Below are positions 6,498 through 63,743 of a stretch of 64,000 nucleotides of DNA, piece after piece. The stretch is taken from assembly GCA_046546095.1 (NCBI GenBank), contig JBKGYK010000003.1:4220-68219 (forward strand), read 5' to 3'. The notes beneath the pieces were generated by a model that was not told where the DNA came from, searched no databases, and worked only from the letters and a program-made list of their open reading frames with translations. Each line of letters starts with the position of its first letter. Within the stretch, counting starts at the first letter, position 1. The translations under genes were made by a program, and so were the position numbers. This DNA comes from Bacteroidales bacterium. GTDB lineage: Bacteria; Bacteroidota; Bacteroidia; Bacteroidales; ML635J-15.

Positions 6498-6507
6498 ATT
6501 CTTTCCT

Positions 6508-7257: not shown

Positions 7258-7268
7258 GCTACTATAGT

Positions 7269-7823
7269 TTAATCCAAATGTAAATATTTGTTTTCCATGA
7301 TGTTCATTCTTCGCTCACAGGACATTCTGACGCCCTTGCTTAACTGATGTTTTATCAATTCAAAGGATGCCTGAATTTCACCCAGCAACAGTGGCTCTTC
7401 TGCAGCAAATTTCAAGAGTATCTGAAGGCCAATGCTGCGTGTTCCCGGCTGTTTATCCGAATCCTGAAGTACTGACATACAAAAATCAAACAAACTGCCC
7501 TGCACCTCTTCCGGCCAGTCGCTGATGGCCGTATCTTTGAAAAGTTTCAAAAGCTCGCGTATCTGACCATCGCGCTTTATTTCAGGCAGACGGCACATGA
7601 TTTCCGGCAGCCGGGAGATTATGCGGCCAGGGTTTGTCTTCACGCTGTTTGCCAGTGCCCAGGCAGAACGCCATGCTGCCGGCTGGTCATTTGACAAAGC
7701 AAGCCTCATACACTGCTCAAAATTGACTGCAGGAATCGTGGCTTCAACAGCTTGTTCTTTGTCAAGCTGAGCCGATTCATAAAAGGCTTTGAGATGCTGA
7801 TATGTTTTGTCCTGTTTGTCCAT
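7269..7823 (-). CDS. Hypothetical alpha-helical (HEAT/ARM-like?) protein embedded in the suf operon
   Basis: 184-aa ORF with an ATG start, 6 nt after the sufB stop and 11 nt before the sufC start. No signal peptide or TM segment. No motif of SufA/SufE/SufS/SufT recognised. Confidence 0.55.
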   Translation of the reverse strand: MDKQDKTYQHLKAFYESAQLDKEQAVEATIPAVNFEQCMRLALSNDQPAAWRSAWALANSVKTNPGRIISRLPEIMCRLPEIKRDGQIRELLKLFKDTAISDWPEEVQGSLFDFCMSVLQDSDKQPGTRSIGLQILLKFAAEEPLLLGEIQASFELIKHQLSKGVRMSCERRMNIMENKYLHLD

Positions 7824-12500: not shown

Positions 12501-13014
12501 CACCTTCAATCTGCAGGTTGAGATTTGAGTTTAATACAGCATTCTGCCTGTTGCCCATGCTGACCCCTCTGGCAATACTACCTGTGGTTTTCAGCCGGCT
12601 TTCATCTGTACTACTTCGCCGGATATCACCCGGACTGTATGCTATTTCAGGCTCTGATGAAGATCGTGATGTACTGTCAGAAGAAGAGGCAAACAACCAG
12701 GGCTGCTCTGTGGTACTGCCGGAAAAATCATACGGAAAAATCCGGTACGTACAATGCAGGCTTTCTCCACAGATACTATCATCAAGATAAACCAGACCTT
12801 CCCTGTGGTTTATCGTGTAGAGATTTTCCGCCAGTTTGCTGTTCTCTGCATTGTACAGGATAAAGCTACCCGGCACAAGTGGTGCAGCTTTCAGTTTATG
12901 CTTCCCGCCAGAGCAGCTGACAGTCTCAGAACGATGCAGTACAAGTTTCTGTGCCTGAATGTTCACGCTGGTAAGCATGAGAAAAACATATATGAGGATG
13001 CGCAGGTAATGCAT
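9550..13014 (-). CDS. Very large predicted outer-membrane beta-barrel protein of unknown function
   Basis: Start trimmed to the ATG at 13014 (MHYLRILIYVFLMLTSVNIQAQ signal peptide), giving 1154 aa. It has a Ser-rich linker, then long Y/N/S/R-rich beta-type sequence ending GGVQLRAYF. I recognised no plug/TonB box, POTRA or OstA motif. Confidence 0.6.
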   Translation of the reverse strand: MHYLRILIYVFLMLTSVNIQAQKLVLHRSETVSCSGGKHKLKAAPLVPGSFILYNAENSKLAENLYTINHREGLVYLDDSICGESLHCTYRIFPYDFSGSTTEQPWLFASSSDSTSRSSSEPEIAYSPGDIRRSSTDESRLKTTGSIARGVSMGNRQNAVLNSNLNLQIEGDLTSDLKVRAALTDRNIPIQPDGTSQKLQEFDKVFIEVYNDAFRMSAGDIVLKQQDDYFMQYAKKARGASLSGRFDAERTKILSDFGASVSRGNYQRMEIQGEEGNQGPYKLQGNNNESYIVIVSGSERIYLDGELLTRGQTKDYIIDYNTGELSFTANRLITKDSRIIAEFEYRASSYNRLMLSTNHEVETKKSRFFVRYFHESDGKNQPVDQRLDIDQRQFLSNIGDELSDALYPAWDSVGFESAQVRYRLTDTVVNGEVYDSIFVHSTNPDSAFYQINFSNVGENQGNYIKVNGAANGRVFRWVAPVDGTPSGNYAPVSRLITPKKQQMLSMGGDYQLTNSTELFYVMSFSEKDVNTYSNQDAGDDKGLALRGGINQQLIKDSLQNLRFSLAYDFIQRNFSSLERFREAEFTRNWIVENELAGVNEHAGQLRLQYDAFAFLTADFQSSVMYRPGEYSGGRQVLNASLRNRKWDILLSGDLLNTRQTGYDGFFLKNNITLGKLFSKWQVFGRFKQEWQEGKIPDTGELTGNSFRFYELESWVKQGRQSDNEWKLSYLYRKDELPGQNRLSGSSEAYKLGMDYRLLKTKANKLDAGLQYRKLDVLRQTELEDTRAQDNFAGQLRYRHESFNGFLTGNLYYQSGSGLELKKEYSYLKVPEGQGIYTWTDYNGNGVEELDEFEEAVYQDQADYIRIYMPGNDYIKSFNNSLNFSLNLRPERVIDSNTGLSSVLTKLSNRFNMNLAGKNTASRTGMRYLPVSYLIADTALVFYNNNLRNVLSWNRLSSVFTADIIYQRQDSRSQLVSGEESRESENWKLQWRWNISREVSISNTTGLGSQFYDSQFFSNKNYHINEESNLLDIRVQPDVNVRLRGFFDFSHRENSLNDVFSRSLSPGVEYRNNALINGMLSVRLEYVWVVYSGETGTSLAWQMLESLQPGDNYRWNLSFQKRLSNGLQLNLNYQGRKPAGEKTIHTGGVQLRAYF

Positions 13015-13106
13015 TATTTTTACGAATTTACTCCTTTTTTCCAGTTTTCCTGATGCAATCCACTCAATATTTGATAAAGAACTTCGTTTGTTTTTAACAA
13101 TAATAC

Positions 13107-13114
13107 TACTTTTG
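13107..13114 (+). promoter_or_regulatory. Candidate -7 box (TACTTTTG) for the small OMP / waaA unit
   Basis: TAnnTTTG match 18 nt upstream of the ATG at 13133. The TTTG at 13087..13090 has only a 16-nt spacer. Confidence 0.35.
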
Positions 13115-13132
13115 CACAAAGCTTTAACAATT

Positions 13133-18820: not shown

Positions 18821-21800
18821 TTGAAGCGAATTTATAAATATCTGACCGATACTCTACTGGCGGGGGGCCTTGCATTGCTGTTTCTGTTTCCATTTGCAGG
18901 AACATCATCTGCATTCAGCCAAAACAACAATGATAGTCCCGTACCTGATACCACATTGCATTCAGCAGATACCATTGAAATTGATGAAGTGGATTTGCCA
19001 TGGGATTTTCAGCCGGACGATAACAACCCTCTCACTGCCGACCCCGAGTCTCCTCTTTTTGGAAAAGATCCGGACAACATCAACAGCCAGATTGAATACG
19101 ATCCGGAAACAGATTCTTATGTTTTCAAAAAGACCCTGGGCGACTCTCTTGAATTGGGCACACCATACAGTCTTCCCTTTCAGGATTATATGCAGTACGA
19201 TTTTGAAAAAGGCATGCAGGATTATTGGCGGCAGCGGGTAGAAAACGCAAATTTTGAAACAAGATCAAGCCTGATTCCCAAACTGGAAGTGGGAGGTGAA
19301 GCTTTCGACAGAATTTTTGGCAGCAACACCATAGATATTAAACCTCAGGGATCAGCTGAATTGAGTTTCGGCCTGAATATATCAAAAGTGGAAAATCCCA
19401 ACCTTCCGGTTAAACTACAACGAACAACCACCTTTGATTTTGATGAGAAGATTCAGATGAATGTAGTCGGCCAGATTGGTGACAAAATGAAGCTCAATGT
19501 CCAGTATGATACCGAAGCTTCTTTTGATTTTGAAAACTCTGTCAAAATTGAATATACCGGACATGAGGATGAAATCATACAGAAAATTGAAGCCGGTAAT
19601 GTCTCACTACCTCTTACAGGATCACTGATTCAGGGCAGTCAGTCATTGTTTGGGTTCAAAACCGAACTCAAATTCGGGAAACTTACTATGACCAGTATTT
19701 TTTCCCAACAAAAAGGCGAAACCAGCACAATCACAGTTGAAGGCGGTGCCCAAAGGCAAGATTTTGAAATTGATGCTGATGAATATGAAAAAGATAAACA
19801 CTTTTTCCTGGCGCATTACTTTAAGGAAAATTACGATAAATCACTGGAAAATCTACCTGTTATCAACTCCGGGGTGAATATCACCAAAGTGGAAGTATGG
19901 ATAACCAATACCAGCGGAAATTTTGAGGATGCACGTAACATTGTGGCCTTTACGGATCTTGCAGAATCAAATGATGAAAATATTCAGAGTGATTACATTA
20001 CCGGGATTTCACAGACAATGTTGCCAAACGATTCGGTCAACAGTCTTTTTAACATCGAAGAACAATATCCCTTAGTCAGGGATATTAACCAAACCACCTC
20101 ACTTCTTTCCGGTGAACCTTTCAGTATGCAGGGAGGTGTGGATTATCAGAAGATCGAATCTGCCCGCAAGCTGGATGCCTCAGAATACACCCTCAACTCA
20201 CAACTGGGTTACATTTCTCTCGATTCACGTCTGCAATCAGACCAGGTGCTTGCTGTGGCCTTTGAATATACTGTTGGTGGTGAAACATACCGAGTGGGAG
20301 AATTTGCCAATAGTGGTGTCAGTGCTCCTGATGCACTTATTGTTAAGCTGATCAAAGGGACCTCACTCACTCCCGACCAGACCACCTGGGATTTGATGAT
20401 GAAAAACATTTATTCCATTGGTGCTTATCAGCTCAGTTCAGAAGATTTTATCCTGGATGTCATGTACCAGAATGATAAAACAGGAACAGCCATCAACTAT
20501 ATTCCAGCCGGCGATGTTGACAAAACCATATTACTCAGGGTAATGAACCTTGATAATCTCAACCAGCAGCTGGATCCCTATCCTGATGGTAGATTCGATT
20601 TTGTAAATAACATCACCATCAGGCCGGAAAACGGCAGGGTTATTTTCCCTGTCAGGGAACCATTCGGGAGTCATCTCAGGCAGCAAATCACATCCGGAGA
20701 CCCTTCACTTGATGATGTGGCTGATGAATATGTATTTCAGGAACTCTACGACTCCACGCAGAGTACAGCACGACAAATTGCCGAAAAGAATAAGTATTAC
20801 ATGGCAGGGCAATATAAATCAAGCTCAGGCTCGGAAATCAGGCTCAATGCCATCAACATACCCGAGGGCTCAGTAAAAGTAACGGCCGGAGGCATGGAGT
20901 TGACAGAAAATCAGGACTACACAGTAGATTACAACCTTGGCCGGGTAAAAATCATCAACGAAGGCATACTGGAATCAGGCACGCCAATCAATATTTCACT
21001 GGAAAGCAATTCCATGTTCAGTGTACAAACCAAAACCCTTGTGGGTACACACCTGAATTATGAGATAAGCAAAGATTTCAATCTGGGTGCCACCATATTA
21101 AATCTCACTGAACGCCCTCTGACACAAAAAGTAAGCATTGGGGATGAACCCATATCCAATACCATCTGGGGTGTGAACGGATCATACCGCAGCGAAGTCC
21201 CGGAAATCACCAAGGCCATTGACTGGCTGCCTTTTATTGAAACCAAGGAACAATCCACCATTACACTCACAGGTGAATTTGCCCATTTGATACCGGGACA
21301 CTCCAGAGCCATCGAAAAGGAAGGCAATGCTTATATTGATGACTTTGAGGGCAGCGAAACCAGCATTGACATCAAAATGTTCAATGCCTGGTCGATTGCA
21401 AGCACACCTACCGGCCAGGAAAACCTTTTTCCCTATGGTGAATTGATGGACAGCCTTCGCTATGGATTCAACCGTGCCAAGCTGGCATGGTATGTCATTG
21501 ATCCACTGTTCCAGCGCAACAACAGTCCGGTAAGTGTGGAACAGCAATCCAGCCATTATGTACGTGAAGTTCAGGAGCAGGAAATATTCCCCAACAAAGA
21601 AAGTGAAACCGGAGCCATCCCTGCCACACTGGCCGTACTCAACCTGGCATATTATCCAAATCTGAAAGGCCCGTACAACTACAATACAGATGAACTAAAT
21701 CCGGATGGTACCTTGATGAATCCCGAAAAACGTTGGGGCGGAATTATGCGGGAGCTTTCAACAAATGACTTTGAAGAAGCCAATATTGAATATATCGAAT

Positions 21801-24800
21801 TCTGGCTAATGGATCCCTTTGTTGAGGATGAAGACAATCCCGGTGGTGATTTGCTTATCAACCTGGGTAATGTTTCAGAAGACGTTTTAAAAGATTCCAG
21901 GAAATCATTTGAAAACGGCCTGCCCGCACCGGCTGTGGACAACCCGGTAGATACCACTGTTTGGGGCCTGGTGCCTCGGGTACAGTCCCTGGTCAACGCA
22001 TTTGACACTGATCCTGAAAGCAGGGAGGCACAGGATGTGGGACTTGATGGATTGTCATCAGAAGATGAAGTAGAATTCTTTGCAGATTACCTCTCTGACC
22101 TGGCTGCCAATTATGGCACGGACTCAGAAGTATATCAACAAGCAGTCAATGATCCCTCACTTGATGACTATCACCACTTCAGGGGTGAAGATTATGATGA
22201 TGAAAACATTGGCATCCTGGAACGGTACATGGATTATAACGGCCTTGAAGGCAACAGCCCTGTCTCCCAGCCCGGCGAAGAATACTCTACATCTGCAACA
22301 TCTCAGCCGGATGTAGAAGACATCAATGAGGATAATACCCTGAGCGAAAACGAGTCTTATTTTCAATATCGCATCAGTATCCGCCCCAACGAAATGGAAA
22401 TCGGCGAAAACTACATCACCGACAAAGTTAAACATAAAGCAGAAATGGCCAATGATCAGGAAAGTGAAGTTACCTGGTATCAGTTTAAGATTCCCATTTC
22501 AGATTATGACAAAGCCATAGGCCGGATAGAAGATTTTAAATCCATCCGTTTTATGCGTATGATTACCACCAATTTTTCACAACCAACCATCATGCGCTTT
22601 GGCACACTGGATCTGGTTCGTAGCGATTGGAGAAAATACGACAAATCATTCATACAGCCGGGAGAGTATATACCCGATGAACTCAGCAAAACACCATTTG
22701 AGGTGTCTGCTGTAAACATTGAAGAAAATGCAAACAAATCACCGGTCAACTATGTGTTGCCACCAGAGATTGATCGTGTCATTGATCCGCAGAACCCACA
22801 GCTCCGCCAACTGAATGAACAGGCAATGGTACTGAAGGTAATAGATCTTGCCGACGGTGATGCCCGCGCCGTGTACAAAAACATTGACATGGATGTCAGA
22901 AAATACAGAAAACTGAAAATGTTTATCCATGCAGAAGAAGTACCCGGTTATGATTTGAATGATGATGACCTGGAAATATTTGTCAGATTGGGCTCTGATT
23001 ATCAAAACAATTATTATGAATATGAATTGCCTGTGAAAGTCACCCCCGCCGGCAATTACGACAACGACTCCCCTGATGACAGACTGATTGTATGGCCTGA
23101 AGAAAACAACCTGGAACTGGAATTTGATTTGCTGCAACTGGTAAAACAAACCCGCAACGATGAAATGCGCTCAGCAGGGTCAGGTGTTACCCTGACACGC
23201 CTGTATTCCATGGCTGACGGTGAAAGAACAGTAAGCATCATGGGAAATCCCAACCTCAGCAATGTCCGCACCATCATGATTGGCGTACGCAACCCCAAGA
23301 AACAAACAGCAGCTGATCATGACGACGGTATGGAGAAAACAGCAGAAATCTGGGTCAATGAGCTTCGTCTTACTGACTTTGATGAAAAAGGCGGCTGGGC
23401 TGCACGTGCCAGGATGACCACAAAGCTTGCTGACTTTGGCTCCATCACGGTAACAGGGGAAACATCAAAACCCGGATTTGGAAGCATTGAGCAAAAGGTC
23501 AGTGAACGCCAGAAAGAAGAAATCAATTCATACAACATTTCTTCCAATCTGGAATTGGGCAAGTTTTTCCCGGAAAAGTCTGGTGTCAGAATTCCTATGT
23601 ATGTCAGCTACTCCGAATCTGTCAGCAATCCAGAATACAATCCGCTGGATCCCGACATCCCGTTTAAAGTTGCTCTGAACGACCCCAACCGGCCACAGGA
23701 AGAAAAAGATTCCATTAAGCGCATAGCCCAGGATTACACCCAGCGAAAAAGCCTCAACTTTACCAATGTTAAGGTGAATAAAATGAAAGGTCAACCAAAA
23801 ATTTACGACCTTTCCAATTGGTCAGTGAGCTATACGTACAATGAGATTTTCAACCGGAACATCAATACGGAATTTGACACCAGGAAAGACATTTCCGGAG
23901 CCATCAATTACAACTACAATGCAACGCCTCAAAATGTGGAACCGTTCAAAAATGTGAGCTTTCTTAACAAACCATCATTCCGTCTGATCAAAGATTTTAA
24001 CTTTTACTATCTGCCCTCTCAGTTGAGTTTCCGTACAAACCTCAACCGTCAGTACAATGAAAGTCAAACACGAAATATCAACAATCCGTACATGCAGATT
24101 CCACTGAACGTAAATAAGAATTTTAACTGGATCAGGCAGTACGACTTTAAATACAACTTTTCCCGCAGTCTGAAATTTGACTTTTCTGCCACCAACAATG
24201 CCAGGATAGATGAGCCGGAAGGCCGCCTGTGGGAAGGAGATCCATACTATGATCAAAAAATGGATACAATCTGGACTAACCTGAGAGACTTTGGCCGCAA
24301 TACACAGTATAACCACAGTCTGAATCTGAATTATCAGTTGCCAATCAACAAAATACCAATTCTAAGCTGGGTATCTGCCAATGCACGCTATAATGGAAAT
24401 TACGACTGGATTGCCGGGCCGATTACTGCTGACACAATTGAACTGGGGAATACCATACAGAACAACAATACCATGTCTATGAGCAGTCAGTTCAATCTGA
24501 TGTCCCTGTACAACAAAATCGATTATCTGAAAAAAGTAAACCAGGAATACAAAGGTAGAAAACGGAGAAGACCACAAAAACCGGAAATGGAGACAGTCAC
24601 ATACACTGAAGATGTGAAATCTCTGGAGAAAGAAAAGCGAAAACGGATTGTCCATAAGCTAAAAACGGAGAATGTCACGGTCAAAGCCACCAACAAAAAA
24701 GGAGCTGTAGTACCTGGTGATACAAGGATAGTTGATGACAAAATCGTATATTTCACACCGCGGAAAGATTCTGACAGTGCAAAAATTATTGTCTCGGGTC

Positions 24801-26278
24801 AACGTGAGGTGAAAGAAAGTATTCTTAAGAAGATTGTTGACAATACCCTGGCCATGGCCATGAGTACCAAAAATATTTCCATATCATATTCCGGTACCAA
24901 CGCCACCTCACTTCCGGGCTATCTTCCTGAGCCTCAACTCCTGGGGATAACCAATTATACACCGGACGAGGCTACCTTCGGCCAACAAAACACCATACAG
25001 TCACCCGGCGCACCTTTTGTTCTGGGCTGGCAGGACAAAAACTTTGGCCGCTGGGCATCTGACAACTATCTGATTACACGCGACTCCATGCTCAACCAGC
25101 CATACACCATGAGTGAAAATGAAACCTGGAATATAAGGGCATCTCTTGAGCCTGTAAGACAAATGCGCCTCGATCTCAACCTGAACCGCACACATACCGT
25201 AAATACCAGTGAATATTATACCTGGACAATTGATGATCCGACTACCGGCGAAGGCTATTTTAAAACAGGAACAGAGCAAATACAGGGAAATTTTTCCATG
25301 ACAACAATTACCATCGCTTCAGCCTTCGAACCTTTTGGGCAGGATGGCAATTATGATTCCGATGTTTTTGAACTGTTTGCATCAAACAGAAAAGTAATTG
25401 CCGCAAGGCTTGCACAAGATCGCCCTGACTACGATCCCTCCGCTATAGATGAAGATGGCTACCCCGAAGGTTATGGAAAATTATCCCAGGACGTGCTAAT
25501 GCCGGCATTCAGGGCTGCATACTCCGGAATGGATCCCAAAACCATATCGCTGGAGGAATTCCCTGAAATCACCAGTGTATTGCCAAACTGGCGAATGACT
25601 TACGACGGACTGTCGCAGGTGCCATTCATCAAAGATTACATCCGTACCGCAAACATTACACACACGTATCGTTCCACCTACAACATCGGTCAATACCAGA
25701 ATAATTTGCGTGACCTCTGGGATCCTGAAAATGGTTTTAATTATATCACCGATTCCGACGGTAACTATTATTCTCAATACACTTTCAATTCTGTCAGTAT
25801 TACAGAGCAATTCTCACCCCTGATTGGTATTGATCTGAACTGGAAAAATTCTCTCATCACCAAATTGGAATTCAAAAAATCCAGAAACCTGGACATGAGT
25901 TTCAGCAACAACCAACTCACTGAACAACGTACAGATGAATACATCATCGGAGCCGGATACAGAATCAAAGATGTACAAATTACCATTGGAACACAGGGCG
26001 GCAGAAAACGCACATTCAAATCTGACCTCAACCTCAGGCTGGACTTCTCAATCAGAAACAATTTAACTGTTATCCGTAAACTGGAAGAAGAAGTAAATCA
26101 GGCAACTGCAGGTAATGGAATAGTAACCATCAAAGCATCTGCCGATTATGTTTTGAGTGACAGGTTTAATCTAAGATTATTCTATGACCATGTCATCAAT
26201 ACACCAAAAGTATCAATCTCCTATCCGACATCAAATATAGATTTTGGTGTAAGTGTAAGATTTACCCTGGCTTCCTAA
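18821..26278 (+). CDS. sprA: T9SS outer-membrane translocon SprA (Sov)
   Basis: 2485 aa with a signal peptide at the extreme N-terminus. It carries the conserved SprA N-terminal region as I recall it (IKPQGSAELSFG, FDFDEKIQMNVVGQIGDKMKLNVQYDTEASFDFEN, GNVSLPL, SLFGFKTELKFGKLTMTSIFSQQKGE) and a beta-rich remainder. The only available start is TTG at 18821, 11 nt after the ruvA stop. Confidence 0.9.
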   Translation: MKRIYKYLTDTLLAGGLALLFLFPFAGTSSAFSQNNNDSPVPDTTLHSADTIEIDEVDLPWDFQPDDNNPLTADPESPLFGKDPDNINSQIEYDPETDSYVFKKTLGDSLELGTPYSLPFQDYMQYDFEKGMQDYWRQRVENANFETRSSLIPKLEVGGEAFDRIFGSNTIDIKPQGSAELSFGLNISKVENPNLPVKLQRTTTFDFDEKIQMNVVGQIGDKMKLNVQYDTEASFDFENSVKIEYTGHEDEIIQKIEAGNVSLPLTGSLIQGSQSLFGFKTELKFGKLTMTSIFSQQKGETSTITVEGGAQRQDFEIDADEYEKDKHFFLAHYFKENYDKSLENLPVINSGVNITKVEVWITNTSGNFEDARNIVAFTDLAESNDENIQSDYITGISQTMLPNDSVNSLFNIEEQYPLVRDINQTTSLLSGEPFSMQGGVDYQKIESARKLDASEYTLNSQLGYISLDSRLQSDQVLAVAFEYTVGGETYRVGEFANSGVSAPDALIVKLIKGTSLTPDQTTWDLMMKNIYSIGAYQLSSEDFILDVMYQNDKTGTAINYIPAGDVDKTILLRVMNLDNLNQQLDPYPDGRFDFVNNITIRPENGRVIFPVREPFGSHLRQQITSGDPSLDDVADEYVFQELYDSTQSTARQIAEKNKYYMAGQYKSSSGSEIRLNAINIPEGSVKVTAGGMELTENQDYTVDYNLGRVKIINEGILESGTPINISLESNSMFSVQTKTLVGTHLNYEISKDFNLGATILNLTERPLTQKVSIGDEPISNTIWGVNGSYRSEVPEITKAIDWLPFIETKEQSTITLTGEFAHLIPGHSRAIEKEGNAYIDDFEGSETSIDIKMFNAWSIASTPTGQENLFPYGELMDSLRYGFNRAKLAWYVIDPLFQRNNSPVSVEQQSSHYVREVQEQEIFPNKESETGAIPATLAVLNLAYYPNLKGPYNYNTDELNPDGTLMNPEKRWGGIMRELSTNDFEEANIEYIEFWLMDPFVEDEDNPGGDLLINLGNVSEDVLKDSRKSFENGLPAPAVDNPVDTTVWGLVPRVQSLVNAFDTDPESREAQDVGLDGLSSEDEVEFFADYLSDLAANYGTDSEVYQQAVNDPSLDDYHHFRGEDYDDENIGILERYMDYNGLEGNSPVSQPGEEYSTSATSQPDVEDINEDNTLSENESYFQYRISIRPNEMEIGENYITDKVKHKAEMANDQESEVTWYQFKIPISDYDKAIGRIEDFKSIRFMRMITTNFSQPTIMRFGTLDLVRSDWRKYDKSFIQPGEYIPDELSKTPFEVSAVNIEENANKSPVNYVLPPEIDRVIDPQNPQLRQLNEQAMVLKVIDLADGDARAVYKNIDMDVRKYRKLKMFIHAEEVPGYDLNDDDLEIFVRLGSDYQNNYYEYELPVKVTPAGNYDNDSPDDRLIVWPEENNLELEFDLLQLVKQTRNDEMRSAGSGVTLTRLYSMADGERTVSIMGNPNLSNVRTIMIGVRNPKKQTAADHDDGMEKTAEIWVNELRLTDFDEKGGWAARARMTTKLADFGSITVTGETSKPGFGSIEQKVSERQKEEINSYNISSNLELGKFFPEKSGVRIPMYVSYSESVSNPEYNPLDPDIPFKVALNDPNRPQEEKDSIKRIAQDYTQRKSLNFTNVKVNKMKGQPKIYDLSNWSVSYTYNEIFNRNINTEFDTRKDISGAINYNYNATPQNVEPFKNVSFLNKPSFRLIKDFNFYYLPSQLSFRTNLNRQYNESQTRNINNPYMQIPLNVNKNFNWIRQYDFKYNFSRSLKFDFSATNNARIDEPEGRLWEGDPYYDQKMDTIWTNLRDFGRNTQYNHSLNLNYQLPINKIPILSWVSANARYNGNYDWIAGPITADTIELGNTIQNNNTMSMSSQFNLMSLYNKIDYLKKVNQEYKGRKRRRPQKPEMETVTYTEDVKSLEKEKRKRIVHKLKTENVTVKATNKKGAVVPGDTRIVDDKIVYFTPRKDSDSAKIIVSGQREVKESILKKIVDNTLAMAMSTKNISISYSGTNATSLPGYLPEPQLLGITNYTPDEATFGQQNTIQSPGAPFVLGWQDKNFGRWASDNYLITRDSMLNQPYTMSENETWNIRASLEPVRQMRLDLNLNRTHTVNTSEYYTWTIDDPTTGEGYFKTGTEQIQGNFSMTTITIASAFEPFGQDGNYDSDVFELFASNRKVIAARLAQDRPDYDPSAIDEDGYPEGYGKLSQDVLMPAFRAAYSGMDPKTISLEEFPEITSVLPNWRMTYDGLSQVPFIKDYIRTANITHTYRSTYNIGQYQNNLRDLWDPENGFNYITDSDGNYYSQYTFNSVSITEQFSPLIGIDLNWKNSLITKLEFKKSRNLDMSFSNNQLTEQRTDEYIIGAGYRIKDVQITIGTQGGRKRTFKSDLNLRLDFSIRNNLTVIRKLEEEVNQATAGNGIVTIKASADYVLSDRFNLRLFYDHVINTPKVSISYPTSNIDFGVSVRFTLAS

Positions 26279-54340: not shown

Positions 54341-55939
<1,599 letters not shown>

Positions 55940-55944
55940 GGCTT

Positions 55945-56187
55945 ATGTTGAATGTTGAAATCATATCACCGGAAAAATCCCTTTTTGAAGGAGAGTGTGA
56001 AATGGTGCAGGTCCCAGGTGCAAAAGGAGCTTTCCAGATTCTCAATATGCACGCACCCATTATTTCTACTCTCGTGGAAGGAAAAGTACGGGTACTTGGC
56101 GTCCGGGGAAAAGAAGAATTCTTTGAAATCAGCAGCGGCGTGGTGGAATGCCACGATAATAAAATCATTATTCTTGTAGAAAAATAA
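55945..56187 (+). CDS. atpC: F0F1 ATP synthase subunit epsilon, short form (beta-sandwich only)
   Basis: 80 aa, 5 nt after atpD. The N-terminal sandwich pattern (VEIISPEKSLFEGECEMVQVPGAKGAFQIL) is present, with no C-terminal helical hairpin. Confidence 0.85.
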   Translation: MLNVEIISPEKSLFEGECEMVQVPGAKGAFQILNMHAPIISTLVEGKVRVLGVRGKEEFFEISSGVVECHDNKIIILVEK

Positions 56188-56250: not shown

Positions 56251-56970
56251 TTACTTTACAATCAGTTTCTGTGTATCCATCACCTCTCCATCAATTGAGT
56301 AGCGATAAAAATAAGTGCCTTTTTCAAGTTGATCTGCAGGAATGCTTAAGCTTCCGGATCCGCTTCGTTTATAATCCAGAACACGTTTTCCCAACATGTC
56401 ATAAACAGTAACAACCAGTTCAGCACCTGGCTTTAGATCATAATCCAGACTTGCCACACTGCTGGTGGGATTTGGATATATGTCACTAACAATCAAACCA
56501 CGCAGAGCGTCTTCCACGGAAGTTGTGGCATCATAAATCACGGTGAAAGAAACTGAATCAGAATTGTCATCAACATTAAACACATTATAATCAATGGTTG
56601 ACAGTCCGGGGTTTCCATTGGGATTGTATTCTACGTAAAAACCACCCAATTCTCCATCAGCGGGCACAACAAATTCCGGAGACAAATCAACCTGTGGCAT
56701 CAGACAGGTACCTGTCACACAAATAGAATTGATGGAACCGTCAACTACATCCTGATCAACACGTTCCATTCTGGCAGTAATATCACGACTGTCATTGTTT
56801 TTAATAACAAATTCCAATACCATCATATTCTCTGTATCACCAGCCAGGCTGATGTTAGACTCAAGCTCCTGACCGCTGTCTTCACTAATCAACTGAAGAT
56901 TCTGTGACTGTCCAATACGTACCGATATAATAATTATGGCAATAAAAAGTACAATTTGTTTCATATGCAT
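56251..56970 (-). CDS. Secreted protein of unknown function with a T9SS type-A C-terminal sorting domain
   Basis: Signal peptide. The C-terminus DIYPNPTSSVASLDY...VTVYDMLGKRVL...GTYFYRYSIDGEVMDTQKLIVK matches the Por secretion tail pattern. Confidence 0.75.
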   Translation of the reverse strand: MHMKQIVLFIAIIIISVRIGQSQNLQLISEDSGQELESNISLAGDTENMMVLEFVIKNNDSRDITARMERVDQDVVDGSINSICVTGTCLMPQVDLSPEFVVPADGELGGFYVEYNPNGNPGLSTIDYNVFNVDDNSDSVSFTVIYDATTSVEDALRGLIVSDIYPNPTSSVASLDYDLKPGAELVVTVYDMLGKRVLDYKRSGSGSLSIPADQLEKGTYFYRYSIDGEVMDTQKLIVK

Positions 56971-57258: not shown

Positions 57259-59322
57259 ATGAAAAAATCTTTACTTTTGATTAGCTTAATTAGCCTTACA
57301 CTTCTCTCCTTTGGCCAAAGCAAAAAAAACGGTTTAATCTGCACTCAACCTTCCCAAACAACCAAAAGCACCACCGCCGAATGGGCGCAGGTTGTTGACT
57401 TCACCTCCACCGACATTGACGGCGTTGAGCACCATCTTCAGAGCTACCTTGATGCAGGTAAATATGTCATCGTAGATCTTTCAGCCACCTGGTGCCCACC
57501 ATGTTGGAATCTTCATCAGTCCGGTGTATTTGAAGACCTTCACAACAATTATGGTCCGGACGGGACAGATGAACTCGTTGTGCTTTGGGTAGAAAATGAC
57601 GCATCAACAACCCTGGCCGATATCGAAGGTACCGGGTCTAACACCCAGGGAGACTGGACCAATGGCGGGGATTTTCCTGTACCTATTATTGATGATGCCA
57701 GCATCACTGCAAGTTTTTCCGAACTTTATGAAAATGCAGTGCCTACCGTATTTATGGTATGTCCCTCAGGCATGTATAAAGATGTTACCGAAGAAGCCTG
57801 GACAAGCGCAACAGCAGTATATAATACCATCACCGGATGCCCTGACGAGAACAACGACATGGAAATGACCAGCGTTTCAACAACCAATTCAACAACGGAT
57901 TGCGCTTTGGGTGCAAACGAAAATGTTGTGATCGAAATTACAAACATCGGGATTGATGATGTTTCAAATGTTGATGTTTCCTATACCATCAACGGCGGAA
58001 CTGCTGTTACAGAAACCATCGCAGGCCCGATTCCTGCTACAGAAACATCTACCTATACTTTCAACCAGACTGAAGATTTATCAGCTATGGGTGCCTATGA
58101 AATCGAAGCAACTGTCAACTGGCCAGAAGACCCTGAACCAGCCAACAATACAAAAACCGGTATGGCTATTTCCGGTGACAGTGAAATTACACTTGATTTA
58201 ACTACAGATGATTATCCCGGAGAAACAAGCTGGGATATTGTCGATAATGCAACTGGTACTGTAATTGCTGAATCACCAGTGTATGAAGGTGAAAACACAT
58301 CCTATACAGAATCAATTTGCATTCTCAGTAGCAACTGTTACACCTTCACCATTTATGATGAGTATGGTGACGGAATATGCTGCAGCTACGGAGATGGTTC
58401 TTATACCCTGACAGTAGATGGAACTCAAGTAGGAAGCGGTGGTGATTTCGATTCATCAGAATCTGTAGAGATTGATGCACAAACACCAGGTTTTTCAGAC
58501 CTCACGTTCTGTACAGGCGAAACCATTGACTGGGATACAAATGTTGATGGAACATTCTCAGCTTTACCCGGAGACATTGATAACAGCACTACCGGTGAAT
58601 ATACGATAACCTATACCATCAATGAAGGCGAAACATGCGAAGCTTCCGAAACTTTTACCGTTTCAGTTGTTGACGATATTATTACACTTGATATCACGCC
58701 TGAAGATATTACTGTCTGCCAGGGCGATAGCATTAACTTTCCTACAGGTTTCGGTACATTTTCACCTGCAACGGTTGACAATAGCACTATCGGCACAACC
58801 ACTGTCACTTATTACATATCTCAGGGCACCTATTGCGAAAACTCCACAACCTTTGATGTTACTGTACTCGAAGCACCGGATGCAAGCATTACCCAGGACG
58901 GTTTTGTACTCTCAACCACAGCTTCTGGCGACCTGCAATGGTACCTGAACGGCGATCCAATTGAGGGTGCAACAGAATCTACCTACACCTGCACAGAAGA
59001 CGGTGATTACTATATGATTGCAACAGGTTCAAATGATTGCACTGACCAATCAAATACAATCAGTATTAGTGGTACAGATGTTGAAAGCCACAGCCTGGCC
59101 GACTTCAAAATATATCCAAATCCCGCTGTAAATCAGGTATATATCGAAGTCCCACAAAATTCTGTACACCTTAGTATTTATGATATCACCGGCAAAGTAT
59201 TGATCAAAAAAGATGATTTCAATACCAGCAGCCTGGATATTTCTGTTTTGAATGCCGGCGTTTATATGATTGAAATACAAAAAGATAACGCAAAAAGTGT
59301 GAGAAAACTTCTTGTTAAATAA
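57259..59322 (+). CDS. T9SS-sorted multidomain protein with an N-terminal thioredoxin-like (WCPPC) domain
   Basis: Signal peptide, then a Trx-like segment DLSATWCPPCW (CPPC at 57493..57504). Next come a CARDB-like segment, a Cys-rich YGDGICC module and two Ig-like repeats. It ends in a CTD (FKIYPNPAVNQVYIE...GVYMIEIQKDNAKSVRKLLVK). Confidence 0.78.
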   Translation: MKKSLLLISLISLTLLSFGQSKKNGLICTQPSQTTKSTTAEWAQVVDFTSTDIDGVEHHLQSYLDAGKYVIVDLSATWCPPCWNLHQSGVFEDLHNNYGPDGTDELVVLWVENDASTTLADIEGTGSNTQGDWTNGGDFPVPIIDDASITASFSELYENAVPTVFMVCPSGMYKDVTEEAWTSATAVYNTITGCPDENNDMEMTSVSTTNSTTDCALGANENVVIEITNIGIDDVSNVDVSYTINGGTAVTETIAGPIPATETSTYTFNQTEDLSAMGAYEIEATVNWPEDPEPANNTKTGMAISGDSEITLDLTTDDYPGETSWDIVDNATGTVIAESPVYEGENTSYTESICILSSNCYTFTIYDEYGDGICCSYGDGSYTLTVDGTQVGSGGDFDSSESVEIDAQTPGFSDLTFCTGETIDWDTNVDGTFSALPGDIDNSTTGEYTITYTINEGETCEASETFTVSVVDDIITLDITPEDITVCQGDSINFPTGFGTFSPATVDNSTIGTTTVTYYISQGTYCENSTTFDVTVLEAPDASITQDGFVLSTTASGDLQWYLNGDPIEGATESTYTCTEDGDYYMIATGSNDCTDQSNTISISGTDVESHSLADFKIYPNPAVNQVYIEVPQNSVHLSIYDITGKVLIKKDDFNTSSLDISVLNAGVYMIEIQKDNAKSVRKLLVK

Positions 59323-59336
59323 GATAATATTACCTG

Positions 59337-59374
59337 CTAAGGCCGGCAAATTGTCGGCCTTAGTTATTTGTTTT
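59337..59374 (+). terminator. Terminator-like hairpin after the T9SS thioredoxin-domain gene
   Basis: CTAAGGCCG (59337..59345) pairs with CGGCCTTAG (59355..59363) and is followed by TTATTTGTTTT. Confidence 0.6.
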
Positions 59375-59447: not shown

Positions 59448-59942
59448 ATGAAACGACTGATTCTTTTCACATTATTTTTTGGCCTGGCCATGATGCTAAA
59501 TGCCCAGGAACTGGCCAATGTTCAATTAAAAACCCTCGAAAGGCAAACTGTACAATCCCATGATGTCATTCAAAACGAAGACGGACCCATACTTCTCTGT
59601 TTCTGGGCAACCTGGTGCAAGCCCTGTATTAAAGAACTCAGTGCATATAACGAGATGTATCCTGACTGGGAAGAAGAAACCGGTGTAAAAATCATTCTCA
59701 TTTCCACCGACAATGCCAGAAGCATGCACCGCGTTGGCCCTTTTGTCAACGGTAAAGGCTGGGAATTTGATGTTTATGTGGATGCCAATTCTGACCTGAA
59801 GCGTGCCATGAATGTGGTCAATGTCCCTCACACATTTCTTCTCAATAATGATGGTGAAGTTGTATGGCAACACACATCATATATGGAGGGTGATGAAGAT
59901 AAAGTTTATGAAGAACTTCAAAAACTCACTGAATCTGAATAG
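59448..59942 (+). CDS. TlpA/ResA-like periplasmic thiol-disulfide oxidoreductase
   Basis: Signal peptide, FWATWCKPCIKE active site (CKPC at 59616..59627), 164 aa. Confidence 0.85.
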   Translation: MKRLILFTLFFGLAMMLNAQELANVQLKTLERQTVQSHDVIQNEDGPILLCFWATWCKPCIKELSAYNEMYPDWEEETGVKIILISTDNARSMHRVGPFVNGKGWEFDVYVDANSDLKRAMNVVNVPHTFLLNNDGEVVWQHTSYMEGDEDKVYEELQKLTESE

Positions 59943-59982
59943 GCTTTGATTATTTTAAAGTTCAGCAAAATCCGATCAATTC

Positions 59983-61629
59983 ATGAAAAATTTCTTCAGG
60001 TATCTGCCTTTCCTGTTTATCCTGATAACAGGTAAGCTCACAGCTCAGGAAGGCAGAATAACGGGCAATTTTCAGGGTGATTTTCAGTACTACTTATCTG
60101 ATTCCAGCATCAATGCTGTAGCCCCTGATGAACAATTACTGATGAATTCATACGCCAATTTCACCTTTACCAAAGGCAACTTCAGCGCCGGACTTCGTTA
60201 TGAAGGCTATTTGAATACCCTTGCAGGTTTTCCCGGCGAAGATGGGAGAAATGACGGTATTGGCATCCCTCACAGATGGGCAACATTTTCAAAAAACGGA
60301 CTGCAAATTACCGCTGGTAATTTTTATGAACAATTTGGCAATGGGCTTGCCCTGAGAACATACGAAGAGAAAAACCTGGGTATCGACAATTCCCTGGATG
60401 GAGTACGTGTTAAGTACAATCCAATCTTTGGCATCAACCTGACCGGTCTGGTGGGAAAACAACGACATTATTTTGACTATGGCCCTGGTATTGTCCGTGG
60501 TTTTGACGGAGAAATCGGCATCAATGACATCATCCCTTCACTGATGGACAAACGACTTAGATTAACAATGGGTGGAAGCTTTGTCAGCAAATTCCAGGAA
60601 GATAATGACCCGGTATATGTGCTCCCGGAAAATGTAGCGACATCAGCAGCACGCCTCAACATCAACTACGGGCTGCTTAACCTGGCAACGGAATACGCCT
60701 ACAAAATCAATGATCCCAGTCAGGAAAACAATTACATCTACCGGCCGGGGCAGGCATTCCTGGCCACAGCAACCTATTCAAAAAGTGGGTTGGGAGTTTT
60801 TCTTACCACCAAATGGGTTGACAACATGTCTTATCGCAGCGATCGAAACGCAACACTTACCGACCTCAACATCAACCACCTGCCGGAAATAAGCAAGAAT
60901 CATGCTTATACCCTTTCTGCTTATTATCCTTATGCTACTCAACCCAACGGTGAATGGGGAATTCAGGCCGAAGTTTTTTATAAATTTAAGCGTAAATCAA
61001 CGCTCGGCGGCAAATACGGAACCATGCTGGCCTTGAATTATACCAGGGTACATGATATTAGTCGCCAGCAAATTTCAGACTCCATTCCCATTGGTGCCAG
61101 AGGAACAAAAGGTTACAAAACAGATTTTTTCAGCATGGGTGAAGAATTATTTTTTCAGGACATCAATGTAGAAATCAATAAAAAAGTGTCCAAAGATTTC
61201 AAGATGATCCTCACCTGGCAAAACATTATACTGAATAATGAGGTTTTAAAACAGTCTGATTATCACGACATGATCAAAGCAAACATTGCCATAGCTGACC
61301 TTACTTATAAATTCAATTCAAGGAAAAGCCTCAGAGGAGAATTTCAAACCATGTTTACCGAACAGGATAAAGGTGACTGGGCCATGGTGTTGTTTGAATA
61401 CAGCATGCCGCATTTTTTCTTCAGCATTATGGACAACTGGAATTACGGCAATCCCAACAAAAACGAACGATTTCATTATTACACGGCAGGTCTGGGTTAC
61501 GTCAATGGCGGGAATCGTATTCAGATTTCCTACGGGAAACAACGTCAGGGTGTCATGTGTGTAGGCGGTGTCTGTCGTACCGTTCCTGCATCCAATGGCG
61601 TCATGCTTTCAATATCCAGTACTTTTTAA
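59983..61629 (+). CDS. Predicted outer-membrane beta-barrel protein (I recall this type as DUF6029 family)
   Basis: Signal peptide (LFILITGKLTAQ), GNFYEQFGNGLALRTYEEKNLGIDNSLDG segment, C-terminal MCVGGVCRTVPA (C-x4-C at 61558..61575), ends SISSTF. Confidence 0.6.
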   Translation: MKNFFRYLPFLFILITGKLTAQEGRITGNFQGDFQYYLSDSSINAVAPDEQLLMNSYANFTFTKGNFSAGLRYEGYLNTLAGFPGEDGRNDGIGIPHRWATFSKNGLQITAGNFYEQFGNGLALRTYEEKNLGIDNSLDGVRVKYNPIFGINLTGLVGKQRHYFDYGPGIVRGFDGEIGINDIIPSLMDKRLRLTMGGSFVSKFQEDNDPVYVLPENVATSAARLNINYGLLNLATEYAYKINDPSQENNYIYRPGQAFLATATYSKSGLGVFLTTKWVDNMSYRSDRNATLTDLNINHLPEISKNHAYTLSAYYPYATQPNGEWGIQAEVFYKFKRKSTLGGKYGTMLALNYTRVHDISRQQISDSIPIGARGTKGYKTDFFSMGEELFFQDINVEINKKVSKDFKMILTWQNIILNNEVLKQSDYHDMIKANIAIADLTYKFNSRKSLRGEFQTMFTEQDKGDWAMVLFEYSMPHFFFSIMDNWNYGNPNKNERFHYYTAGLGYVNGGNRIQISYGKQRQGVMCVGGVCRTVPASNGVMLSISSTF

Positions 61630-61641
61630 TTATTATCAGTC

Positions 61642-62502
61642 ATGAAACAGTTACTCAAATACCTAAGCATAGTTTTGATTGCAGGCAGTGTGTTTATTGC
61701 CTGCGACAAAATAGAAGAACCCTATGTAGAAGAAAATGCAAACATATGGAACGGAAGAAAGGTACTGATGCTTGATCTCACAGGACATCACTGCCCAAAC
61801 TGCCCTGAGGGACACCGCACATTAGAAGATTTGCAAAATTCCTTTGGAGAAGCCATCGTTCCTGTGGCAATTCATGCAACCTATTTTGCACGACACGGCA
61901 ATGATTCTACTGAACCTTTTTACTACGACTTCACCTGCCCTACAGGCATAGAGCTTGGAGGAGACACACAGGGCGGTGCAGGCTATTTTAACATATTTGG
62001 TCTGCCGGTAGCTGCCGTCAATAATTTTAATCCCGAAGGACTCTCAAATCCCGGAGAATGGGGTGGAATCATATCTGACTTCCTCGGCCTGTATCCTGAA
62101 TTTACCATCGAAATCAGCAGTAATTACAATCCCAATAAGCTGGAAATAAGTGCTGATGTGGAGATTCAGGCAGAAGTGGCGTCTGTCAGGAATCTCAAGC
62201 TTGGTGTTTACCTCACCGAATCTCATATTATCAACTGGCAGGAAGACGATGCAGCCGAAGAATCTCCGGTGCCGGACTATGAACACAATCATGTGCTCAG
62301 AGCAAGTATGAACGGCAGTTTTGGCGAATCAGTCAATACTTCGAACAATGAAATTACTCCCGGAGACATGTTCAGCAAATCATACACAATTCAGCGTGGT
62401 GATGACTGGGTTCCGGAAAACATGCATGTTCTTGCCTTCGTTTATGATACCGATACATATGAAGTATTGCAGGCTGAAGAGATTCTCCTGATTGAAGAAT
62501 AA
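61642..62502 (+). CDS. Omp28-related outer-membrane lipoprotein with a thioredoxin-like CxxC
   Basis: Lipoprotein signal (LIAGSVFIAC), LDLTGHHCPNCPEGH (CPNC at 61792..61803), 286 aa, 12 nt after the barrel gene. Confidence 0.65.
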   Translation: MKQLLKYLSIVLIAGSVFIACDKIEEPYVEENANIWNGRKVLMLDLTGHHCPNCPEGHRTLEDLQNSFGEAIVPVAIHATYFARHGNDSTEPFYYDFTCPTGIELGGDTQGGAGYFNIFGLPVAAVNNFNPEGLSNPGEWGGIISDFLGLYPEFTIEISSNYNPNKLEISADVEIQAEVASVRNLKLGVYLTESHIINWQEDDAAEESPVPDYEHNHVLRASMNGSFGESVNTSNNEITPGDMFSKSYTIQRGDDWVPENMHVLAFVYDTDTYEVLQAEEILLIEE

Positions 62503-62545
62503 AACCGGCTGAACAAAATCTGTCATTTTTTATTATCTTCACCTT

Positions 62546-63193
62546 ATGAATCATTTGACAAGCACTATACTCATAGGGTTTATGGCAACCCTTCTGTCCT
62601 CCCCGGTTTTGTCCCAGGATTTTAGTGGTGGAATTTGCGCTGGTCCGGTAATTACCCAATACAACGGTGATAATGTTGGCGGATACAACAAAATCGGTCC
62701 GAAAGCCGGAATTTTTGTGCGCAGAGAGATGCCCGGCAAACTCGATTACCAGATTGACATGATTTTTGTCCAAAAGGGAAGTAAATACAAAAACAGGGAA
62801 ATCGTGGATTATTATAATCTGCGATTGCGCTATATTGAAGTACCCTTTACCCTGCAGTACCTCACTGACAAACTGGAAATACCGGGATTTTTTCGCTGGC
62901 AGCTTGAAAATGAAATCGGCCTGGAAGTTGGTTTGGGTGCAGCATACCTTCTGGAAGCCAAAGAAGATGACGATGGAGGAGGCTGGCTCAATGAGCCGGT
63001 AAAACCTTTCAGAAAATACGATATCACAGCCCATGCAGGTCTGGCATACTTTATCAATGAAAACTGGTTTTTGAATTTCCGATACAGTTACAGTATATTG
63101 CCTGTGCGGGATCATCCCGGGGGACAAACCTGGTTGATCGACTGGGGAGAATACAACAATGTGCTGCATTTTACTGTTAATTATGCATTCTGA
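62546..63193 (+). CDS. Small outer-membrane beta-barrel protein (PorT / OMP_b-brl_2-like)
   Basis: Signal peptide, LRLRYIEVPFTLQY strand typical of PorT-like barrels, ends HFTVNYAF; 215 aa. Confidence 0.65.
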   Translation: MNHLTSTILIGFMATLLSSPVLSQDFSGGICAGPVITQYNGDNVGGYNKIGPKAGIFVRREMPGKLDYQIDMIFVQKGSKYKNREIVDYYNLRLRYIEVPFTLQYLTDKLEIPGFFRWQLENEIGLEVGLGAAYLLEAKEDDDGGGWLNEPVKPFRKYDITAHAGLAYFINENWFLNFRYSYSILPVRDHPGGQTWLIDWGEYNNVLHFTVNYAF

Positions 63194-63194
63194 T

Positions 63195-63743
63195 ATGCAA
63201 AGAAAAATCGTGATAGCAATTACAGGAGCAAGTGGCAGCATTTATGCCCAACGCCTGATATCAAAACTGGAGCAGTTACCAAACCCACCGCAGTTGGCAC
63301 TGGTAATGTCGGAGGTTGCAATAAAAGTGTGGGAGACAGAATTGGAATCCCTTCCAAAATACAATCATCAGATTTTTGATGCCGGCGATTTCATGGCACC
63401 TTTTGCTTCCGGATCATCAGTTTGGAACAGTATGGTAATTGTACCCTGCACTATGGGCAGTCTGGGGAAAATTGCCAACGGTATAGCGGACAACCTGATT
63501 ACCCGTGCCGCAGATGTGTTTTTGAAAGAAAGAAAACAGTTGATACTGGTGCCACGCGAGACACCGTTCAATCACATTCACCTTGAAAACATGAAACATC
63601 TCAATCTGGCAGGTGCACTTATCATGCCGGCATCCCCTTCGTTTTATTCACGTCCGCAAAGTATTATTTCTCTGGTTGATACACTGGTGAACCGCATTAT
63701 GGATCATTTGGGTTATCCACCTGAAGATGCCCAGCGCTGGTAA
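63195..63743 (+). CDS. ubiX: Flavin prenyltransferase UbiX
   Basis: IVIAITGASGSIYA N-terminus, VIVPCTMGSLGKIANG. Start trimmed to the ATG at 63195, 1 nt after the preceding stop. Confidence 0.9.
   Translation: MQRKIVIAITGASGSIYAQRLISKLEQLPNPPQLALVMSEVAIKVWETELESLPKYNHQIFDAGDFMAPFASGSSVWNSMVIVPCTMGSLGKIANGIADNLITRAADVFLKERKQLILVPRETPFNHIHLENMKHLNLAGALIMPASPSFYSRPQSIISLVDTLVNRIMDHLGYPPEDAQRW

Follow-up and report, generated by a model that had tools for sequence, protein, structure and literature searches.

Known thioredoxin-fold reductases of the ResA/CcmG/TlpA type act on specific periplasmic clients: ResA and CcmG keep apocytochrome c reduced, and TlpA serves ScoI and CoxB. DsbD, CcdA and ScsB place a membrane cysteine pair between a thioredoxin-fold donor and a thioredoxin-fold acceptor with its clients, and in MtrCAB of Shewanella a periplasmic redox protein, a large outer-membrane barrel and a surface redox lipoprotein are encoded together. 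LptD, a large barrel with essential disulfides, works with the lipoprotein LptE. On the surface of Porphyromonas gingivalis, HBP35 is a haemin-binding protein with thioredoxin activity that is exported as a type IX secretion system (T9SS) cargo; for surface thioredoxin-fold proteins such as this, we know of no electron source outside the periplasm. Here, we describe a three-gene module encoding a TlpA-type thioredoxin-like protein, a DUF6029 barrel and an Omp28-type lipoprotein, found in a 64,000-nucleotide (nt) stretch of a Bacteroidales bacterium (GCA_046546095.1, contig JBKGYK010000003.1, positions 4,220-68,219, forward strand). This whole stretch is referred to as the window, and all coordinates are window positions unless another locus is named. 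The component families were already known; what is new is the conserved trio and its link to T9SS cargo and to a homologue of the P. gingivalis surface protein PorA.

In the window the module consists of gene 1 (59448..59942, 164 aa), gene 2 (59983..61629, 548 aa, C-terminus SISSTF) and gene 3 (61642..62502, 286 aa), all on the plus strand in the open reading frame (ORF) list, followed by gene 4 and ubiX (gene 5). The initial annotation, made from the sequence alone, had described five same-strand genes spaced by 40, 12, 43 and 1 nt, which the ORF list reproduces exactly, and its positions for the cysteine motifs are correct (CKPC, 59616-59627; CVGGVC, C526..C531, 61558-61575; CPNC, 61792-61803). 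Its family guesses were also right by profile search (gene 1 thioredoxin-like, gene 2 DUF6029, gene 3 Omp28, gene 4 OMP_b-brl_2, and ubiX), as was its remark that no characterised system has such a composition: each component falls in a known family, and the combination matches none.

Synteny was assessed with one genome per species among 586 DUF6029-encoding stretches, of which the best 80 were taken as loci. Where enough flank is present, a TlpA-type gene lies directly upstream of DUF6029 on the same strand in 74 of 75 loci and an Omp28-type gene directly downstream in 70 of 71; all three are adjacent on one strand in 67 of 68, with median gaps of 27 nt (TlpA-DUF6029) and 12 nt (DUF6029-Omp28). 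The co-localisation that the initial annotation had put forward for checking is therefore found in several orders, the loci being labelled Bacteroidales, Flavobacteriales, Cytophagales (Hymenobacter), Chitinophagales, Lentimicrobium and Marinilabiliales, along with two metagenome-assembled genomes labelled Chlorobiota. Approached in reverse, from four Omp28 homologues (33-37% identity), three lie within the same trio and one stands alone. In the most divergent branch reached, with Chryseobacterium sp. 52, a Flavobacterium and Ferruginibacter yonginensis (L089 5247-8653, L090 5332-8644 and L091 5266-8662), the lipoprotein gene is inverted and divergent from TlpA-DUF6029, yet still adjacent. These inverted Omp28-type lipoproteins are longer (350-362 aa, with an additional N-terminal domain) and retain the lipobox, WCG[YN]C and the His. 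Because the association outlasts such rearrangement, a functional link is strongly indicated, and the core of the cluster is a three-gene module, TlpA-DUF6029-Omp28, conserved across Bacteroidota.

The sole exception to the adjacency, L070, has a DUF6029 gene (5890-7581, 57% identical) without either partner, directly downstream of a gene for a 709-aa T9SS cargo; 5 kb upstream lies a gene for a 290-aa protein with CTYC that matches the C-terminal (sandwich) domain of Omp28 only. This DUF6029 gene may be a paralogue. Other recurrent neighbours of the trio were rejected as parts of the module, being housekeeping genes (phosphomannose isomerase, malic enzyme, QueG, RuvA/B and SIR2).

Gene 2 matches DUF6029 (PF19494) with 602.6 bits against a gathering score of 27, residues 1-548 aligning to model positions 1-538. 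It has a signal peptide and a C-terminal Phe (…SISSTF), and the barrel suspected from its sequence is returned by AlphaFold2 (AF2) as a confident all-beta model (predicted local distance difference test, pLDDT, 89.3; predicted template modelling score, pTM, 0.81) with 26 strand elements, about 24 of them barrel strands. Fold searches match large barrels only (the FimD usher, TonB-dependent transporters and MtrB, 6r2q_B) at a template modelling (TM) score below about 0.5, FimD usher barrels being the best matches (0.46-0.54). Because these matches are generic, we regard gene 2 as a large barrel of its own kind that cannot be placed in a family by fold. A TonB-dependent transporter or SusC-like protein was rejected, given that the Pfam scan gave no Plug or TonB_dep_Rec match and the sequence has no match in the Protein Data Bank (PDB). 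A FimD-like chaperone-usher was rejected as well, since only the barrel aligns, no usher Pfam family is matched and no chaperone or pilin genes are among the neighbours. We found no function for DUF6029 or for the trio in the literature, and the sole mention of DUF6029 found is an HHpred likeness of some OPX-linked Wzi-like barrels to this family (PMC9603273).

Gene 2 holds exactly two cysteines, C526 and C531, on either side of a GG turn in the last hairpin, and both are invariant in 75 DUF6029 sequences that are 52-77% identical to it. Searched with a profile, 1.84 billion cluster representatives gave 1,817 DUF6029 members at E <= 0.001 and 444 at E <= 1e-30; among the 131 full-length 50%-cluster representatives from the best 150, C-x-G-G-[VIL]-C occurs within the last 45 residues in 129, and 90 have exactly two cysteines. 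In one full-length representative, P0360, the first of the two cysteines has been lost (...ESAGGIC...); this natural variant could tell whether the pair is essential. In the model the last hairpin pairs residues 511-527 with 530-547 around the turn G528-G529 (register i + j = 1057), which places I513/I544, I515/L542 and Y517/V540 on the lipid-facing side, and F548 closes the series. Outer-membrane barrels have their C-terminal aromatic residue at the periplasmic face, and the turn that joins the final two strands is therefore taken as extracellular. The cysteine pair would then sit outside the cell, approximately 9-10 residues beyond the membrane and facing the pore. This placement was read from the secondary structure of the model and the strand register rather than from coordinates, and kinks at 521-522 and 535-536 could alter the facing.

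Gene 1 encodes a protein with a signal peptide ending ...LNAQ and Pfam matches to AhpC-TSA (7e-19), Redoxin and Thioredoxin_8. The TlpA/ResA-type signature first read from WCKPC was upheld by these thioredoxin-fold profiles and by a ResA-like Glu: the active site is W56-C57-K-P-C60-I-K-E63, with C57, C60, E63 and P127 (the cis-Pro position) each kept in 76 of 76 cluster orthologues. PDB matches include 2m72 (E 1.5e-39), ResA 4nmu (3.5e-17) and StoA, and in the alignment with 4nmu CKPCEKE stands against CKPCIKE. Gene 1 scores under every named NCBIfam cut-off (ResA 81 of 170 bits, StoA 71 of 210, DsbE 38 of 123, TlpA 32 of 230) and by sequence is best described as a member of the broad TlpA/ResA/CcmG family in no named subfamily. 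ResA likewise carries a Glu (Glu80) three residues past its second Cys, and with CxPC and this Glu gene 1 looks like a reductase. What it has in common with ResA, CcmG and TlpA is the fold, CxPC, the Glu, the cis-Pro, Sec export and adjacent presumed clients; the difference lies in the partners, which are cytochrome or copper-centre assembly factors in those systems and an outer-membrane barrel and a lipoprotein here. In its working the trio would come closest to TlpA with a client, in a form that reaches as far as the outer membrane. The closest structure, 2m72, is a nuclear magnetic resonance (NMR) structure titled 'Uncharacterized thioredoxin-like protein' that aligns over 142 residues with gene 1 and has FFATNCKPC in place of FWATWCKPC. 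Probably this is an orthologue encoded by a different Bacteroidales genome, presumably as P. gingivalis PG_2175.

Gene 3 combines a lipoprotein signal, HCPNC and an Omp28 match, in agreement with its first description as an Omp28-like lipoprotein. It scores 96.3 bits against Pfam Omp28 (PF11551; cut-off 34.9) and 135.3 bits against NCBIfam lipoprot_Omp28, under the cut-off of 150, and close homologues carry the NCBI label 'Omp28-related'. The lipobox Cys21 (61702-61704) is followed by D-K-I-E-E-P-Y, then by a thioredoxin-like domain with C51-P-N-C54-P and H78, and then by a beta-sandwich with YEHNHVLR. In the AF2 model (pLDDT 94.9), beta1 comes first and CxxC opens helix 1; beta2 follows with H78 as its last residue, then a loop with Pro122 and finally the beta-sandwich. 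The top fold match is P. gingivalis HBP35 (5y1a) over both domains (E 5.7e-11, TM 0.59/0.54, 276 columns), followed by a DUF1223 protein (2axo) and the Omp28 domain 2r2c. Both gene 3 and HBP35 carry FTxxxCxxCP...H, with sequence similarity over approximately 50 residues around CxxC (E 1.1e-4); gene 3 differs in being a lipoprotein, and the Pfam scan found no T9SS sorting domain (Por_Secre_tail) in it. P. gingivalis Omp28 (PG2173, 2r2c), of unknown function, is a lipoprotein like gene 3 with a homologous C-terminal domain (E 1.6e-28, common YEHNHVLR..NG.WGE). Across orthologues the lipobox C21 is kept in 76 of 77 and C51, C54 and H78 in all 77, so that the check on cysteine conservation called for by the initial annotation finds the barrel pair and the sites of genes 1 and 3 essentially invariant. 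The NCBIfam model names include 'Omp28-related selenoprotein' and 'ResA-like WAxxUGC motif-containing protein'; if selenocysteine stands for an active-site Cys in such relatives, they would point to catalysis. The HNH motif of the sandwich was considered as a metal site, an idea weakened by its loss in Flavobacterium and Ferruginibacter, which have YDGVLR.

The features of gene 3 suggest that it may be surface-exposed. Its mature N-terminus is conserved across homologues as C-D-K-I-[ED]-[ED]-P-Y, to be compared with the experimentally defined lipoprotein export signal C-X-K-(D/E)2-X (PMC5080379). C-D-K-I-E-E has K at +3 and E at +5 and +6, but I at +4, a partial match. At least two acidic residues occur within +2..+6 in 48 of 62 homologues, and lipoproteins of the divergent branch have ...ESDFxE, near the Flavobacterium johnsoniae consensus SDDFE. 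In many genomes paralogues of gene 3 are T9SS cargo and hence located outside the cell.

Upstream of gene 1 lies the gene for a 687-aa T9SS cargo protein (57259..59322, plus strand). A TlpA/Redoxin-type domain at its N-terminus contains WCPPC (57493-57504), CARDB and Ig-like domains are also present, and a sorting domain forms the C-terminus (Por_Secre_tail 1.6e-15, Redoxin 5.8e-5, PDB 4k9z thiol-disulfide oxidoreductase 7e-5). These features substantiate the secreted WCPPC protein noted there before. About half of the loci carry T9SS cargo, and in 37 of the 80 a cargo of more than 300 aa with CxxC adjoins the trio. This recurrence strengthens the earlier observation that three envelope locations each have a CxxC protein. 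Cargo of the Redoxin/TlpA type occurs in 10 loci (the window gene included) and Omp28/HBP35-type cargo in 19, and since two thioredoxin subtypes recur, CxxC redox function seems to be selected rather than one ligand pocket. The window also contains a 2485-aa ORF (18821-26278, plus strand) with a SprA_N domain (E 7.8e-214). As this is the translocon protein SprA/Sov, the organism has a type IX secretion system.

Beside the WCPPC cargo gene, on the minus strand, is a gene for a 239-aa protein (56251..56970), a small T9SS cargo with an N-domain of approximately 140 aa and a Por_Secre_tail match (2.5e-10); a promoter-like motif, TATTTTTG, lies 21 nt upstream of its ATG. Its family has an invariant Cys pair, C84/C89 in the window protein (56704-56721), and the family profile matches PDB 6kjk, 'N-terminal domain of PorA', over 116 residues (E 1.5e-7) with the Cys pairs aligned, by which the product is identified at the sequence level as a PorA homologue. 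The two share the same architecture and similar length (239 versus 246 aa), and the conserved pair aligns with CfgqC of the PorA chain; they differ by low identity, and the signalling role has been shown in P. gingivalis. Genes of this family stand beside the trio in 28 of 80 loci, plus the window. PorA, the T9SS regulator, is displayed on the surface as a T9SS cargo and acts as a signal for PorXY-SigP; it reportedly gets there without help from the T9SS translocon (PMC7712824, PMC12152298). Its N-domain is FimH-lectin-like (PMC7712824), and the later paper argues that it uses the T9SS as well and describes Cys92 and Cys96 (PMC12152298), which are taken to be the counterpart of C84/C89. The cited PorA papers make no mention of redox neighbours or of a link to such a cluster.

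A similar arrangement is indicated by the locus tags of P. gingivalis. In strain W83 PG2172 is PorA (PMC7712824, Table 2) and PG2173 is the Omp28 lipoprotein (PMC9722745; PMC5053529 supplement), so that porA and omp28 carry consecutive tags, as a PorA homologue stands near the cluster in the window. PG2174 appears as a hypothetical protein in an outer-membrane-vesicle proteome comparison (PMC4335976) and in a total-membrane set, and PG2175 as a conserved hypothetical periplasmic protein (both PMC5053529 supplement); on these two the literature gave localisation data only. The pattern PG2172-PG2175 is what the cluster predicts, with PG2174 and PG2175 as the candidate barrel and reductase.

In the pathway that we favour, reductant would leave the periplasm by way of a complex of barrel and lipoprotein and arrive at thioredoxin-fold proteins of the surface, a tentative choice for which we put the chances clearly short of even. 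It is preferred because the barrel keeps its place in operon order with two oxidoreductases, because two thioredoxin subtypes recur beside it and because HBP35-type proteins have no known donor. The periplasmic reductase (gene 1) would be the electron donor, presumably recharged by an inner-membrane CcdA/DsbD-type protein, and barrel and lipoprotein would form one complex in the outer membrane. The thioredoxin domain of the lipoprotein would lie at or in the pore and the cysteine pair of the barrel on the pore-facing side of the extracellular hairpin, and reducing equivalents would pass via the complex to surface thioredoxin-fold proteins, namely the lipoprotein and T9SS-anchored HBP35-like or TlpA-like cargo. 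The more specific plug-and-barrel version, in which electrons run from TlpA to the CxxC of a lipoprotein in the pore, on to the pore-facing Cx4C and then to the surface T9SS thioredoxin-fold proteins, is unlikely in exactly this form; such a relay would do for the outer membrane what DsbD does for the inner one, or would be the thiol equivalent of the Mtr conduit, and may be tied to T9SS status, with porA beside the cluster.

Several points weigh against this transfer of reductant. To our knowledge, thiol-disulfide exchange across an outer membrane is without precedent, and no ccdA or dsbD gene is conserved near the trio in the neighbourhoods examined. The modelled extracellular position of the cysteine pair argues against a simple picture in which TlpA reduces the barrel in place, and would put the pair out of reach of a periplasmic TlpA unless a partner fills the lumen. 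A Cx4C on a tight GG hairpin looks, in the model, like the geometry of a structural disulfide, unlike a classical redox-active CxxC. Approximately 40% of the loci have no T9SS cargo within 6 kb, and the export signal of the gene 3 lipoprotein, the surface exposure of which is a prediction, matches only in part. The interaction of barrel and lipoprotein, their complex and the electron transfer are all putative.

In a rival explanation no electrons cross the outer membrane. The TlpA-type reductase would then service cysteine pairs in transit before export, in the barrel, the lipoprotein, the CxxC cargo and the PorA-like cargo, and the barrel disulfide would be structural. Gene 1 is of the right type for this, every co-encoded protein with a conserved cysteine pair must cross the periplasm, the Cx4C hairpin has a structural appearance, and LptD is a precedent for a large barrel that depends on disulfides. 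We nevertheless rate this explanation as somewhat unlikely: it leaves unexplained why two oxidoreductases should flank, in 67 of 68 loci, a barrel whose hairpin disulfide is trivial, in the order TlpA, barrel, lipoprotein and with gaps of 12-27 nt, and what use surface thioredoxin-fold proteins would be after a single reduction. A dedicated folding module for the Cys-containing barrel, the alternative named in the initial annotation, could also be at work. Barrel and surface-lipoprotein pairs are also the usual Bacteroidota design for uptake, and the barrel and lipoprotein, with their T9SS paralogues, could take up a nutrient that is thiophilic or sensitive to redox state, such as haem, copper or some other metal, or a disulfide compound. 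The CxxC(+His) sites would be kept reduced by the TlpA-type protein, in the way that TlpA serves Sco proteins. The resemblance of CxxC with the invariant H78 to the CxxxC+His of Sco points the same way, as do the Cleaved_Adhesin (haemagglutinin-type) domains in some neighbouring cargo. Yet the barrel has neither a Plug nor a TonB-dependent receptor domain by Pfam, the neighbourhoods contain no conserved inner-membrane transporter and no conserved TonB system, the sandwich HNH motif is not kept in all genera, and the two thioredoxin subtypes acting as cargo are unrelated. HBP35 itself can be read both ways, as it binds haemin and is needed for growth on haemin depletion, but the binding persists in a 27-kDa form without the N-terminal part (PMC2907840). 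Taken together, we consider uptake improbable.

Two further explanations centre on the barrel. It could be a dedicated translocon that exports or surface-exposes the Omp28 lipoprotein, the PorA homologue or both, with the oxidoreductases controlling disulfides before and after passage. The FimH-lectin-like N-domain of PorA together with FimD ushers as best fold matches, the 28 loci and the window with a PorA homologue nearby, and the consecutive PG2172/PG2173 tags all agree with this. The fold similarity is generic, however, and usher plug and N/C-terminal domains are missing; many loci have the trio without a nearby PorA gene, and a later paper argues that PorA uses the T9SS as well. We consider a translocon very unlikely. 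The HHpred likeness to Wzi-like barrels would instead make DUF6029 a capsule or exopolysaccharide export channel with the redox genes as bystanders. This we regard as highly implausible, since the 90 neighbourhoods examined show no conserved gene for OPX/Wza, PCP or Wzx/Wzy and the only conserved partners are thioredoxin-fold proteins.

By analogy only, the trio resembles DsbD, MtrCAB and LptD/LptE, and it differs from each of them. DsbD resembles the proposed chain in having a donor, a membrane cysteine pair, an acceptor and clients, but it is an alpha-helical inner-membrane protein without homology to the trio, the membrane part of which is a beta-barrel with a pair that appears extracellular rather than mid-membrane. 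MtrCAB shares the co-encoded set of periplasmic redox protein, large barrel and surface lipoprotein. The trio, in contrast, has no CxxCH haem motifs (CKPCI and CPNCP) and no cytochrome Pfam matches, the fold similarity is generic, and thiol-disulfide exchange needs direct contact instead of electron hopping. A porin-cytochrome conduit was rejected given that neither multihaem CxxCH nor a cytochrome Pfam match is present. LptD/LptE is also a large disulfide-bearing barrel with a lipoprotein, but there is no homology and no Lpt gene nearby, and in the trio the lipoprotein is itself thioredoxin-fold.

The two remaining genes of the string are variable neighbours. Gene 4 (62546..63193, plus strand, 215 aa) matches OMP_b-brl_2 (PF13568; 2.2e-10), and its cysteine is not conserved; of its initial description as a PorT-like barrel the common Pfam family stands, and nothing closer than family level was found. 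It occurs in 27 of 80 loci. The gene listed as ubiX (63195..63743, plus strand) encodes a flavin prenyltransferase (195.6 bits with TIGR00421, for which 108.9 suffices); the ATG at 63195 is the start that aligns with the N-terminus of the UbiX family, and an alternative in-frame ATG at 63159 would overlap gene 4. Although ubiX had been counted with the gene unit, it is not in the conserved module and is found in 23 of 80 loci only. The gene 4-ubiX pair (62546-63743 in the window) stays together even where it is displaced or inverted relative to the trio, as in L016 (12092-13377), L017 (1031-2213, minus strand) and L035 (2307-3502, minus strand), and the two genes often overlap (median -8 nt). 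Given this joint movement and the low count of loci, ubiX is a neighbour and not a component. In the distant locus L081 gene 4 follows the trio without ubiX. The pair thus joins an outer-membrane barrel to a cytoplasmic flavin prenyltransferase.

In the window, the short gaps inside the gene string contain neither a terminator nor the Bacteroidota promoter motif TAnnTTTG, and from the sequence co-transcription of genes 1-5 is plausible. Between the T9SS cargo gene and gene 1 stands a strong terminator-like hairpin (59336..59364, plus strand) with a 13-bp stem and a T-rich tail, and because of it the WCPPC gene probably has its own transcript. Upstream of gene 1 the Bacteroidota -7 motif (TAnnTTTG) has no exact copy, although AATATTTG comes near to it; a generic sigma-70 scan remained at background level and an Rfam scan of the whole window gave no match. 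Upstream of the PorA-like gene, two plus-strand ORFs (54389-55939 and 55945-56187) resemble by translation ATP synthase beta and epsilon genes. The beta-subunit ORF as listed has a TTG start and an 11-residue extension ahead of MAKLTGE, the internal ATG being probably the true start. Elsewhere in the window a 1189-aa ORF (9550-13119, minus strand) matches no Pfam family at E <= 1e-5.

The conservation of the trio offers the first functional handle on DUF6029, and the adjacency of PorA homologues together with the porA/omp28 tags ties the module to the T9SS. The trio is an obvious candidate for the missing electron source of surface thioredoxin-fold proteins, of which HBP35 is the studied case. 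Testable strains are found in Chryseobacterium, Kaistella and Ferruginibacter, and probably in P. gingivalis with PG2172-PG2175. If the transfer of reductant to the surface is not borne out, the trio is still a conserved envelope system worth a knockout; if it is true, no thiol-disulfide pathway before it will have been shown to cross an outer membrane, and it would be categorically new.

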